Shown: piece after piece, positions 19,562-45,310 of the stretch
Layout of the letters: every line of letters begins with the position of its first letter
How positions within the stretch are numbered: the stretch's first letter is position 1
Source of the DNA: an uncultured Actinomycetota bacterium
GTDB lineage: Bacteria > Actinomycetota > Thermoleophilia > RBG-16-64-13
Reading direction: 5' to 3'
Length of the DNA stretch: 64,000 nt
Assembly: GCA_963701105.1 (NCBI GenBank)
Contig: OY969565.1
Location: 583,429 to 647,428 of the forward strand
Translations under genes and position numbers: made by a program
Notes under the pieces: model-generated
Told to the model about the DNA's origin: nothing
Databases searched by the model: none
Seen by the model: the letters and a program-made list of their open reading frames with translations, nothing else

Positions 19562-20208
19562 CGGAGGCGCTTCTGATCGTGGGGGCATACCTCATTGGGT
19601 CCATCTCCCCGAGCGTGCTCCTCGGGCGCCTCTTCAAGCACGTCGACCTGCGCGAGCACGGTAGCGGCAACGCCGGGACAACCAACGCCTTCCGGGTGCT
19701 GGGAGTCAGACTCGGGCTGGCGGTGCTCTTCGTAGATGTAGTTAAGGGATTCATTCCGGCTATGATCGCCCAGTCCCTGGTGGGACCGACAGCCACCATC
19801 TTCGTGGGCCTCGCGGCCATGGCCGGACACAACTGGTCCATCTTCCTGCGGGGGAGGGGCGGCAAAGGCGTGGCAACCGGGGCAGGGGTCCTGCTCGCGC
19901 TGATGCCCGTCACTGCGGTGGTCCTCGTGGGCGTCTTCGTGGTGGTCTTGTTCACCACCTCCCTGGTATCGTTGGCGTCGTTGTGTGCGGCCGTGATGCT
20001 CATCCCCATGTCGGTGGGCACGGGCAAGCCGCTGCCGTACGTAGTGTTCTCGGTTCTTGCCGCCTCCTTTGTCGTGTACGCTCACCGCGGGAATATCAGG
20101 CGGCTCGTGAGAGGGCGAGAGCCGCGCTCCAAGCTCTCGTGGAGGAGTCTCAGCCGAGTGCCCGCCCGGGACGCCCGCGACGCCGAAAGGAGTAAGCCCG
20201 ATGAGTGA
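19558..20208 (+). CDS. plsY: Glycerol-3-phosphate acyltransferase PlsY
   Basis: YLIGSI, GSGNAGTTN, GHNW..GGKGVAT, HRGNIRRL. Confidence 0.95.
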   Translation: MTEALLIVGAYLIGSISPSVLLGRLFKHVDLREHGSGNAGTTNAFRVLGVRLGLAVLFVDVVKGFIPAMIAQSLVGPTATIFVGLAAMAGHNWSIFLRGRGGKGVATGAGVLLALMPVTAVVLVGVFVVVLFTTSLVSLASLCAAVMLIPMSVGTGKPLPYVVFSVLAASFVVYAHRGNIRRLVRGREPRSKLSWRSLSRVPARDARDAERSKPDE

Positions 20209-29949: not shown

Positions 29950-30465
29950 ATGGATCTGAAGACCTTCATACGTGACGTCCCTGACTTCCCGAAACAGGGC
30001 ATCCTGTTCAAGGACATAATGCCCCTGCTTCAGAATCCGCAGGCTCTCCGATACACAGTCGATCGGCTGGCGGAGTTCAGCGCCCCCAAACACCCCGACA
30101 TTGTCCTCGGGGCCGAGGCACGCGGGTTCATCCTGGGAGCCGCGCTTGCGTACTCCATCGGAGCCGGTTTCGTGCCGGCTCGGAAGCCCGGAAAACTCCC
30201 GTGGCGCGTTGCCTCGGCCGAATACGCGCTTGAGTACGGGGTGGACACCCTCGAGATGCACGCCGACGCCATAATGCCTGGGGAGAGGATCATAATCCAC
30301 GACGATCTGTTAGCGACGGGGGGTACTGCCAGAGCCAAGATAGATCTGGTGGAGCGCGCCGGTGGGGTCGTGGTAGGTCTGGCTTTCATCATCGAGCTCG
30401 GCTTCCTCGAGGGTCGCAAGAAGTTGGCGGGCTACGACGTCTTCAGCCTGATCACCTACTCATAG
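29950..30465 (+). CDS. apt: Adenine phosphoribosyltransferase
   Basis: PDFPKQGILFKDI, EARGF, RKPGKLP, LEYG, DDLLATGGT. Confidence 0.96.
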   Translation: MDLKTFIRDVPDFPKQGILFKDIMPLLQNPQALRYTVDRLAEFSAPKHPDIVLGAEARGFILGAALAYSIGAGFVPARKPGKLPWRVASAEYALEYGVDTLEMHADAIMPGERIIIHDDLLATGGTARAKIDLVERAGGVVVGLAFIIELGFLEGRKKLAGYDVFSLITYS

Positions 30466-30476
30466 TAAGAACCGAT

Positions 30477-30515
30477 AGAAAAACGGAAGGCCGCCCACAA
30501 GGGGGCGGCCTGCCG
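30477..30515 (-). terminator. Intrinsic terminator with U-tract on the minus strand (possibly bidirectional)
   Basis: Stem AGGCCGCCC(30488-30496)/GGGCGGCCT(30503-30511) extended by CGG/CCG; minus-strand tail TTTTTCT. Confidence 0.8.
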
Positions 30516-30662
30516 CAGATTTCGGACGCATCGGCTCCCGAAGGCGCCGTCGACAGCGTTCGGTCGTTAGGACGACGGCTAGCGGCGGGTGCCACCTCCG
30601 GTCCTGAAGCCGTCACGTCCGCAACGCAAACTGTCTATGGGGACCACCTCCTTTCGACGCTT
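30477..30662 (-). ncRNA. Putative ~190-nt small RNA or sORF transcript of unknown family
   Basis: Bounded by promoter TTGGCA-17-TAAAGT and an oriented terminator; contains AAAGGAGGTG, a second GGAGGTGG and several helices; no long ORF. Confidence 0.5.
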
Positions 30663-30668
30663 GGTGTG

Positions 30669-30697
30669 ACTTTACTAGCTCGAAGGCTCGTTGCCAA
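30669..30697 (-). promoter_or_regulatory. Sigma70-type promoter for the small transcript
   Basis: Minus strand TTGGCA(30697-30692)-17 bp-TAAAGT(30674-30669). Confidence 0.6.
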
Positions 30698-30783
30698 GCC
30701 CTATCCTGTAGAGCTGGGGGGTGGGCGGAAATCGACGCCTGCGGGCGGAGCAGAGCGGTCCTTGGGTGAATCATCCTTATCGG

Positions 30784-30811
30784 ACTTTACATAACATACA
30801 TTATCGTGCGT
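30784..30811 (-). other. dif: dif site (XerC/XerD chromosome dimer resolution)
   Basis: Minus strand ACGCACGATAA-TGTATG-TTATGTAAAGT vs E. coli GGTGCGCATAA-TGTATA-TTATGTTAAAT; AT-rich, intergenic, at the gene-strand switch. Confidence 0.88.
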
Positions 30812-30864
30812 AGCACGAAGCGTGCAGAAGGGAGGCTGAATCAAGCCGACCTGCTGTATCTCGC

Positions 30865-31743
30865 TTAGAAGAGCTTCTTGTGCAGTATGGTCTTGAGCCG
30901 ATCGAGGGCTTTGACCTGTTCACGCGACACTGTGCGTTGGGTCAAGCCCATCTCATCGGCCACCTGCTGCTGAGTGAGGTCCCCGAAGAAGACCAGACAA
31001 ATGATCTTCTTCTGCAGATCAGAGAGAACTCGCAGCGCGTCGTACAGCAGGATGCGGTCCTCGACGGGTAACGAGAAGTTCTGCGCCCGGATGGCCTTCA
31101 CCAGAGACTTGTCGACCGCGTCGTCGGACGACCCGTTGAGCGGTTCGTCGAGCGAATGCAGATTCGTCGCCCCGTAGACTCGGATGATCTCAAGGACACC
31201 TTCGGCCTGGATGTTCACTTTTTCGGCCAGTTCAGCGATCGAGGCCGAACGGTGATGCTCTTGAAAGAAGGCGGATTGGGCCTCCTGGATCCGAGTGTAG
31301 AGCGCATGCGCCCAGCGCGGTTGCCGAAGGAGAAGCGCGTCACGGAGATGGTGGCGCACTTCGCCGTCGACGATGGCCACGGCGTAGGTGCTGAAGGCAT
31401 GCCCGCGACTCGTCTCAAAGCGCTGAGCGGCCTTCATGAGGCCGATACGTGCCAGTTGGAACAGGTCCTCATAGGGTTCCGTGGTCCACGAGAAGCGCTT
31501 CAATGTGTGGTGCAAGAGCCCCTGGTTGACCTCCAGCAGGAGGTCGAGGGCGCGGAGGTCGCCCTTCTGGTATCTCTCCACCAGTTCTTCGTTGGTCCCC
31601 GCGGCGTGATTCCCCTCCATCGGAGTCTCAGCGTTCTCAATGGTAAGACCATTGCCTCCGGCCAGCGACCTGAGCCTCGCGCGAGCGCCGCCGGCCGGCG
31701 GGCGTGCGTCCAGCTGCGCCGCCACGGGTGCGGCAGTGCTCAC
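30865..31743 (-). CDS. Atypical group 3 sigma factor (SigB/F/G-like); alternative start ATG at 31620
   Basis: EDLFQLARIGLMKAAQRF..FSTYA..GEVRHHLRD, SLD, LTQQQVADEMGLTQRTVSR. Confidence 0.88.
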   Translation of the reverse strand: MSTAAPVAAQLDARPPAGGARARLRSLAGGNGLTIENAETPMEGNHAAGTNEELVERYQKGDLRALDLLLEVNQGLLHHTLKRFSWTTEPYEDLFQLARIGLMKAAQRFETSRGHAFSTYAVAIVDGEVRHHLRDALLLRQPRWAHALYTRIQEAQSAFFQEHHRSASIAELAEKVNIQAEGVLEIIRVYGATNLHSLDEPLNGSSDDAVDKSLVKAIRAQNFSLPVEDRILLYDALRVLSDLQKKIICLVFFGDLTQQQVADEMGLTQRTVSREQVKALDRLKTILHKKLF

Positions 31744-45134: not shown

Positions 45135-45156
45135 GGTTTCCCTCCGGGGAAAAGAA

Positions 45157-45306
45157 ATGCTCCACCTTGCCGTGTCTACTTATCCCTTGAACCTGCGATA
45201 GCAGGTGGGTGACTGTCCCCGGTGAGCTGAGCTGACCGAGAGAACGCGCCTCCCAAGGAGAATGTGTTGGCTCAAGTTCGAGCAGATCACGCACAAGGTC
45301 GAGCAC
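45157..45306 (-). ncRNA. ssrS: 6S RNA (SsrS)
   Basis: 5' TGCTC-ACCTTG-CGTG-TCTGCT pairs with 3' AGTAGA-CACG-CAAGGT-GAGCA; CTTGAGCC/GGTTCAAG stem, central bubble AACACATT, GGGAG..CCCACCTG; downstream of aspS as in Firmicutes. Confidence 0.85.
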
Positions 45307-45310
45307 GTCA

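Follow-up and report, generated by a model that had tools for sequence, protein, structure and literature searches.

A candidate ribosome-engaging small RNA with an AUA-started micro-ORF in Thermoleophilia resembles the Ms_IGR-5 and CC2171 RNAs

Ms_IGR-5 (RF02471) and CC2171 (RF01867) are curated and expressed small RNA (sRNA) families of the Rfam database, for which the accessible parts of the papers mentioning them report no function. IGR-5 is located between MSMEG_5794 and MSMEG_5795 and has been described as 'validated but yet uncharacterized' and as NAD-capped (bioRxiv 10.1101/2021.12.14.472595). One of the re-annotated sRNAs in a cold-stress study overlaps with it (PMC10454040), and ribosome footprints were found on MS_IGR-5 in Mycobacterium abscessus and M. 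smegmatis (PMC4974804). Moreover, MS_IGR-5 is expressed in Streptomyces lividans (PMC8079986) and corresponds to an sRNA transcription unit in S. avermitilis (PMC8780764). In the same accessible literature, a search for the name of an M. tuberculosis homologue brought up only the unrelated Rv0810c leader. CC2171 is expressed in Methylorubrum, its function being given as unknown (bioRxiv 10.1101/2022.01.24.477521), and the available text of the Rfam 15 paper has it merely as a table entry (PMC11701678). Neither a complement of the 16S rRNA tail nor near-cognate starts nor the spacing between a Shine-Dalgarno (SD) motif and the stop codon is described in the literature covered, which leaves aside the original descriptions of 2008 and 2013. 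Here, we compare with both families a locus in a 64,000-nucleotide (nt) stretch of DNA, hereafter the window, from an uncultured Actinomycetota bacterium of the class Thermoleophilia (assembly GCA_963701105.1, contig OY969565.1, positions 583,429 to 647,428). The locus lies on the minus strand at about 30663-30480 and, as judged by comparison, is a conserved, independent gene of soil actinobacteria for a structured sRNA of about 180 nt. With slightly better than even confidence, we regard its product as a diverged Ms_IGR-5/CC2171-like translated sRNA that engages ribosomes. As far as can be told from sequence, the element is a clade-specific version of a known, unexplained kind of sRNA.

An earlier reading of the window, made from the letters alone (the sequence-only reading), had proposed an unannotated, self-contained transcript with a promoter TTGGCA-17-TAAAGT and a U-tailed terminator, and all the features that it described were located (Table 1). 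Both the promoter and the terminator are present and conserved among relatives. A consensus scan of 30200-31100 gave one promoter-like site compared with a mean of 0.3 in shuffled sequences, and the terminator scan of the same region gave one site compared with 0.4. A TAnnnT hexamer is found at a fixed distance before an invariant CAAGCG in 16/16 aligned homologues, and the sequences farther upstream are unrelated. Conservation begins at the predicted leader, of which A5, C7 and G8 are invariant in an alignment of 42 sequences. The next downstream gene is the convergent apt gene (29950-30465, plus strand), and the statement that no downstream gene is there to be regulated therefore stands.

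The 5' part of the RNA contains an extreme SD sequence (SD1), which the sequence-only reading had matched to the complement of the canonical 16S 3' end at 14 of 15 positions. The small-subunit rRNA of the organism was mapped to L021 1-1514, and with its own tail (...GGATCACCTCCTTTCTA / GGATCACCTCCTTTC) SD1 forms 14 Watson-Crick pairs and one G-U pair. When up to one mismatch is allowed, GAAAGGAGGTGRTCC occurs twice in the assembly of 1,336,554 bp, namely at this locus and on the strand opposite the 16S 3' end. The predicted duplex of -24.5 kcal/mol is far stronger than that of any gene start in the window, as 123 mechanically called open reading frame (ORF) starts have a mean of -7.3 and a best value of -16.3 kcal/mol. 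Furthermore, the first 45 nt of the RNA are free of supported pairing, except for a possible helix H0. Two further pairings of this region were rejected by eye. One would join the invariant SD1 to the first of the CGCCUUC copies of the P4 loop, which varies (CCTGCC, CTGTCG). The other would join CAAGCG at the 5' end to the 3' strand of P1, but P1 covaries and CAAGCG does not. The ribosome-capturing role suggested by the sequence-only reading is compatible with the features of SD1 and of the micro-ORF that follows it.

A strong SD close to the 5' end could also belong to a purely non-coding sRNA, in which SD1 would bind 30S subunits unproductively, as a 5' stabiliser of the STAB-SD type or as a 30S titrator, and AUA would be kept as a poor start. 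The STAB-SD of the Bacillus thuringiensis cryIIIA mRNA is thought to bind 30S subunits and to protect the transcript. Like the element, it has a perfect SD of the GAAAGGAGG type near the 5' end. However, it belongs to a long mRNA leader of a different phylum and has no start codon or frame. In favour of the non-coding alternative, SD1 starts about 9 nt from the inferred 5' end, its duplex exceeds all gene starts of the window, and none of the 42 window-type sequences carries AUG, GUG or UUG at the SD-proximal position. Moreover, the encoded peptide varies where the helices covary (K, M, R, W and L are found at codon 7, for example). We consider this alternative somewhat unlikely, as the conservation of the reading frame speaks against it.

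The ATA of the micro-ORF stands six nt after AAAGGAGGTG and 8 nt after GGAGG, and the ORF of 19 codons was found as the sequence-only reading had described it. The same reading had left open whether ATA or ATG is correct; contigs from four public metagenome runs over 30400-30800 have no variant at 30636-30638 and keep ATA, a check that rests on contigs and not on raw reads. A GTG inside SD1 was rejected as a start because it is out of frame in the sequences with a 4-nt spacer. A public scan yielded 42 distinct versions of the window type. In 40 of these, the frame opened by ATA or ATC is 18-20 codons long and its stop falls on a single aligned position. This position is kept although three different stop codons are used (TAG, TAA in L002 and TGA in L058), which would not be expected of a non-coding RNA. 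Three independent 3-nt indels lie inside the frame, and 3/5 indel events in the 42-sequence alignment are multiples of three.

The layout is also found in other lineages, with CUG, UUG, GUG or AUG in the place of AUA. Among 101 distinct sequences, the start-like codons 5-12 nt after GGAGG are ATA (55), TTG (13), ATC (12), CTG (10), ATG (6), ATT (4) and GTG (1), the totals for ATA and ATC being inflated, to the disadvantage of our reading, by a scan pattern that required ATMGAY. The stops in this set are TAG (81), TAA (10) and TGA (10), and the stop follows G[AG]GGT[GA] at 9 nt in 51 sequences and at 11 nt in 44. An unbiased control is provided by 31 distinct sequences that were retrieved by RF02471 alone. 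All 31 have a start-like codon in the frame of the stop, compared with 5/31 and 9/31 in the other frames, and for ATG, GTG or TTG the figures are 21/31 compared with 0/31 and 2/31. The position of the ATA in the window is exactly that of CTG in RF02471 members. Indeed, the presence of canonical starts at the same place in relatives argues against the non-coding alternative, as do the ribosome footprints on the mycobacterial relative in the accessible part of PMC4974804, although footprints alone are no proof of translation. In a comparative sense the micro-ORF is real, judged from the conserved frame and from the equivalent place of the start in different lineages, and AUA and AUC are probable start codons in Thermoleophilia and Rubrobacteria.

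Conservation of the frame could also point to an ordinary small-protein gene. In this case, the 19-residue peptide (consensus IDS[LM]PSKRSGHWTGGGARL) would be the effector and the RNA structure would serve stability or translational control only. Asp-Ser widely follows the start with synonymous variation (GAC/GAT and AGT/AGC), and the unstructured codons 3-6 show some synonymous or conservative changes. However, the peptides (12-20 residues) are almost completely different between lineages. The motif G[AG]GGUG is read as Gly-Gly (GGG) in some lineages and as Glu-Val (EV) in others, which points to a constraint at the nucleotide level and makes a small-protein gene improbable. The lineage-dependent frame of the motif also fits a non-coding RNA. 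Since the motif is read in different frames and the peptides diverge, the constraint on being read and on the RNA seems to be greater than that on the product. In addition, about 100 nt of covarying structure extend beyond and across the frame, which speaks against a protein effector as well.

The structure was derived from the 42 distinct sequences, which were aligned and then realigned to the model. In this model-fitted alignment, which leans towards the structure of the model, 96.7% of 1717 cells form standard pairs and 22/41 pairs have changes on both sides. None of 500 shuffles reaches any of five measures, and slid 3' partners pair in 39-56% of cells. The minimum free energy of the element has a z-score of -3.07. 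The covariation supports a folded RNA, in which the helices P1 and P1b would close a domain of about 100 nt and the terminator (helix 5) has double changes in 9/12 pairs. The reading frame crosses the 5' strands of P1, P1b and P2 as well as the hairpin P3, and the stop codon lies at the foot of P4. The second SD motif (SD2), which the sequence-only reading had placed just before the TAG, was confirmed and lies 6-8 nt from the last sense codon. It is part of P2, where CCGGAGGU pairs with GCCUUCGG, and in the folded RNA this second GGAGGUG would be masked by an internal look-alike of the anti-SD, CGCCUUCGG, in a helix with covariation support.

Two to three GGA motifs are present, and the sequence-only reading had considered a sponge for CsrA. 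This idea is extremely unlikely to be correct, as SD2 lies within a helix rather than a loop and CsrA (PF02599) was found in 0/25 family genomes. The RNA is present in 15 of these 25, and the window's own assembly is only 51% complete. The alternative helices proposed by the same reading fared unequally. The distal pairing of GGACGT/CGGC with GCCG/GCGTCC is backed by covariation, whereas the local pairing of GACGGC with AGCCGTC is not above shuffles; instead, covariation pairs AGCCGTC with the GACGGC at 30552-30546.

Table 1. Features of the sRNA locus in window coordinates, listed in the direction of transcription
Feature	Position	Strand	Remarks
Promoter-like site	30669..30697	-	-35 TTGGCA 30697-30692, 17-nt spacer, -10 TAAAGT 30674-30669
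Predicted 5' leader CAAGCGTC	30656..30663	-	inferred transcription start near 30663-30661
SD1 GAAAGGAGGTGGTCC	30641..30655	-	complement of the organism's own 16S 3' tail; invariant in 42/42 homologues
Micro-ORF	30579..30638	-	ATA 30638-30636, 19 codons (IDSLRCGRDGFRTGGGTRR), TAG 30581-30579
P1 (GGACGT) and P1b (CGGC), 5' strands	30609..30620	-	inside the ORF; helix 1 with double changes in 7/11 pairs
H0, candidate pseudoknot strand GGACC	30600..30604	-	partner GGTCC 30645-30641 (end of SD1)
P2, 5' strand CCGGAGGT	30601-30594	-	A-U to G-C in 6 sequences
SD2 GGAGGTGG	30592..30599	-	within the 5' strand of P2; 11 nt before the stop
Hairpin P3 (GGC, short loop, GCC; 3 bp)	30584..30593	-	100% paired
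P4, 5' strand GCCGTCG	30573..30579	-	starts at the G of the stop codon; helix 4 with double changes in 3/7 pairs
P4, 3' strand CGACGGC	30546..30552	-	from the covariation alignment
P2, 3' strand GCCTTCGG	30538..30545	-	anti-SD-like, predicted to mask SD2; helix 2 99.7% paired
P1b (GCCG) and P1 (GCGTCC), 3' strands	30524..30535	-	from the covariation alignment
Intrinsic terminator, hairpin and T-rich tail	30478..30511	-	stem 30511-30488, then TCCGTTTTTC

The RNA was traced in the family of the organism and beyond. By blastn, the region from about 30663 to 30532 was found at 68-95% identity in 15/24 genomes of the family, and a covariance model of the window type (R1) detected one copy each in the same 15 genomes and in the window's own. 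The head-motif scan covered one genome per species and gave 100 stretches, which were sorted into the window type (43), a Rubrobacter type (15), a Solirubrobacterales type (11), Trueperaceae- or 'bacterium'-labelled stretches (3), two further actinobacterial types (2 each), Spirochaete (5) and Planctomycete (2) stretches, 14 that were unclassified and 3 that were too short. According to their titles, the window-type records are metagenome-assembled genomes (MAGs) of Thermoleophilia, Gaiellales or Actinomycetota. A composite pattern (GGAGGTGRTCC, 15-45 nt, GGAY, 0-8 nt, GRGGTG) was found in 133 of 401 Actinomycetota genomes, a tally that includes eight unpublished genomes; it occurs once in each of 128, and the reversed pattern is present in 11 genomes. 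Across Actinomycetota, Ms_IGR-5 included, the recurring module has a start-like codon (AUG, GUG, UUG, CUG or AUH) 8-12 nt past GGAGG and then a short frame, with the stop 9 or 11 nt past G[AG]GGUG.

The genes around the RNA vary. In the window, a sigma gene lies about 200 nt upstream of the element. This SigB/F/G-like sigma gene, which scores below the NCBIfam cut-off, and a T2SS-F gene are found upstream only in the subclade of the window. The upstream gene of most relatives is fpg/nei, accompanied by a convergent C_GCAxxG_C_C gene, and other upstream genes are cinA in Rubrobacter and gyrA at one Solirubrobacterales locus. As the neighbours differ between lineages, the RNA is an independent gene, and a dedicated partnership with the sigma factor as well as cis-regulation are excluded. 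The sequence-only reading had suggested that the RNA is a partner of the sigma factor, which the restriction of this gene to one subclade contradicts. For the same reason, it is very unlikely that the RNA is a leader-peptide attenuator acting in cis or a regulator linked to the sigma gene next to it. Four regions of the RNA could indeed pair either as 1:4 and 2:3 or as 1:2 and 3:4, the latter fold, to which the local pairing of the sequence-only reading belongs, being possible in 94.9% of cells, and the proximity to the sigma gene would suit such a role. However, the covariation of the alternative fold is not above that of shuffles, and no gene on the same strand follows for an attenuator to control.

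The comparison with Ms_IGR-5 reveals a similar design rather than a formal match. No Rfam family reaches its gathering score across the element region, which agrees with the novelty claimed for the transcript, whereas the design is that of Ms_IGR-5 and CC2171, which takes part of this novelty away. RF02471 (gathering score 45 bits) has no match at E ≤10 on 30300-31000, and it matches 0/25 family genomes at E ≤0.01. A search of 151 genomes of the phylum, four of them flagged as unpublished, gave 43 matched genomes at E ≤0.001, 19 of those over the cut-off. The layout found in this way consists of GGAGG, a spacer of 8-12 nt, TTG, CTG, ATG, GTG or ATT, 12-14 codons and a stop exactly 9 nt past GAGGTG, and related types in the class of the window score 31-40 bits on RF02471. 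The element matches the 5' module RGGAGGUGRUCC, GGAY, G[AG]GGUG. It also has the spacing of start and stop, with ATA at 8 nt and TAG at 11 nt, a feature that was derived in this analysis and not from Rfam.

Like the element, Ms_IGR-5 belongs to the Actinomycetota and is a single-copy, free-standing unit with a terminator, in which a short leader, RGGAGGUGRUCC, a start-like codon 8-12 nt further on, a short frame, GGAC, G[AG]GGUG and, 9 or 11 nt later, a stop follow each other. The 3' domain of the window RNA (P1-P4), in contrast, is specific to its own type, its frame has 19 instead of 12-14 codons, it uses AUA instead of UUG, CUG, AUG or GUG, and its stop lies at 11 instead of 9 nt. On other lineages, model R1 scores 21-35 bits and on L033, a locus of an Actinobacteria-labelled MAG, 53 bits; these cross-lineage scores are non-discriminating because terminator-only matches on the opposite strand reach 25 bits.

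CC2171 provides the best Rfam match of the element (E 6.9e-4), which is also the sole RF01867 match in the assembly at E ≤0.01. Both RNAs have the same head, with CAA, about 5 nt and GAAAGGAGGUGRUCC (GAAAGGAGGUGAUCC), and the window has AUA as its start instead of GUG. Both have a closing long-range helix with its 5' strand just past the start, inner hairpins and a terminator. CC2171 differs from the element in that it is found in Alphaproteobacteria and has its GUG 7 nt past GGAGG. CC2171-type loci (L169-L288) were collected by a head motif that includes GTG, and three of those tested score over the Rfam cut-off. A GTG-started frame of 12-30 codons is present in 114/118 distinct sequences, with all three stop codons in use and at least three peptide types (14, 18 and about 25 codons), which suggests that CC2171 is translated. 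Unlike the element, just 17/114 have an SD-like G[AG]GGU 7-12 nt before the stop. Members of RF01867 and RF02471 do not match each other's models at E ≤1. In the control genome of Thermus thermophilus, RF01867 also has a match below its cut-off. This match is consistent with the finding of the same head and frame at the Trueperaceae-labelled loci L054, L077 and L108.

The comparison suggests that Ms_IGR-5 and CC2171 share a ribosome-loading module and not a fold. The module comprises a full complement of the 16S tail, a start from the near-cognate set and a micro-ORF whose stop follows an SD-like motif at a fixed distance. It leads to the testable idea that such RNAs may work on or through the ribosome, for which M. 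smegmatis, Streptomyces and Caulobacter would be convenient model organisms. A broader proposal, which we regard as rather unlikely, is that CC2171, Ms_IGR-5, the window RNA and the Rubrobacter- and Trueperaceae-labelled types form one cross-phylum class of ribosome-docking sRNAs that senses or buffers free 30S subunits or initiation fidelity. With equal reserve, the members of such a class would have in common that the free 5' end pairs with the entire 16S tail, that the start codon is deliberately weak and that the micro-ORF runs through the closing helices of the RNA. If true, the relation of this class to the ribosome would parallel that of 6S RNA to RNA polymerase. For genome annotation, the gain is a clade-specific sRNA family that Rfam does not detect, with 42 distinct sequences and a covariance model.

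A tentative mechanism can be drawn for the preferred reading of the element as a translated, ribosome-engaging sRNA. With its free, purine-rich 5' end, the RNA would allow a 30S subunit to dock very tightly on SD1. Initiation at AUA would then be slow and probably sensitive to initiation fidelity. The role of initiation factor 3 (IF3), together with the slower clearance from long SDs, would underlie such slow, fidelity-dependent initiation. A translating ribosome would melt the long hairpin and thereby free SD2. The freed SD2, at the distance of an SD to the P site from the last codon, could pair with the 16S tail and hold the terminating ribosome. In this way, the RNA might toggle between a folded and a ribosome-occupied state and report on or buffer free ribosomes. 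Whether sensor, parking site or sponge, it would exert its effect via the ribosome and not via the poorly conserved peptide. Some of these elements have precedents. The autoregulation of infC (IF3) via AUU likewise involves a weak AUH start for which fidelity-dependent use is expected, but there the frame is that of a full-length protein gene, whereas the element regulates no product of any size. SgrS/SgrT, RNAIII/hld and SR1/SR1P are structured sRNAs with a short translated frame, too. Their peptides are conserved and lie apart from the base-pairing domain, whereas the frame of the window RNA crosses the structural core and encodes a poorly conserved peptide.

Several observations weigh against this reading. 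First, R1 has no match in 9/24 family genomes, including a same-genus genome that is 99% complete, which implies that the RNA is dispensable or replaced there. Second, the scores against the known families are low. The match to RF01867 has 27.7 bits compared with a gathering threshold of 75 bits, and formal membership in RF02471 was not found, while the likeness in design is strong. A model of the 5' module built from 14 over-threshold Ms_IGR-5 members (R2) gives the element 11.4 bits (E 0.32), which places it second of 15 in the window. In the R2 alignment the blocks match, and the GGUCC-GGACC loop has 36 nt compared with about 18. The top R2 match in the window is 20028-20081 (minus strand) with 14.5 bits, and another place in the assembly has 15.5 bits. 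Third, 1-nt indels break the frame in 2/42 sequences (L015, L024), where assembly errors are possible. Moreover, most window-type sequences have an in-frame TTG, ATG or CTG at codon 4, which could be the true start in this type. H0 can pair in 100% of cells, but it has only one double change, from C-G to G-U in 2 sequences. The toggling and the holding of the ribosome are steps that we infer only. Finally, among the public runs matching the stretch, which were searched with a 701-nt query, there is no RNA run.

Near-identical copies of the conserved part were found in contigs from soil, permafrost and sediment metagenome runs, in which the matched share of the 701-nt query, 0.15-0.18, equals the part taken up by the sRNA. 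Run X20, which is labelled 'RNA?', has one contig of 151 nt that runs into unlike upstream sequence and is uninformative on expression.

Some further observations concern leaders and short units that resemble parts of the element. The place at 20028-20081 carries GTACACGAcAAAGGAGG, a leader typical of true Ms_IGR-5. No other part of the module is present there, and the place probably represents the leader of an ordinary mRNA. A 38-codon gene for a basic small protein was seen at L294 (G001:C101, at about position 1500 of the locus) in a same-genus genome that lacks the sRNA; its leader, AAGCG-GC-GAAAGGAGGTGACCCC-ATG, closely resembles the head of the sRNA. Spirochaete MAGs (L027, L030, L066, L089 and L115) and Planctomycete MAGs (L025 and L121) have short conserved units consisting of a perfect SD, ATG ATH GAY, a frame of 10-11 codons and a terminator. 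Inside these frames, AGGAGG or GAGGTGG stands about 9-11 nt ahead of the stop, and the Spirochaete units lie upstream of a metallophosphoesterase gene in 3/3 loci examined. The likeness, which concerns 7/100 scan hits, may be due to chance, since the pattern required ATMGAY.

Two observations concern other parts of the window. A 6S RNA (RF00013) with 66.7 bits is encoded at 45155-45307 (minus strand), and the element itself does not match RF00013. The RNA-polymerase-binding sRNA of the organism is thus a separate gene. Between the sigma gene and the promoter of the sRNA, at about 30795-30830 (minus strand), there is an AT-rich, putative dif-like stretch.

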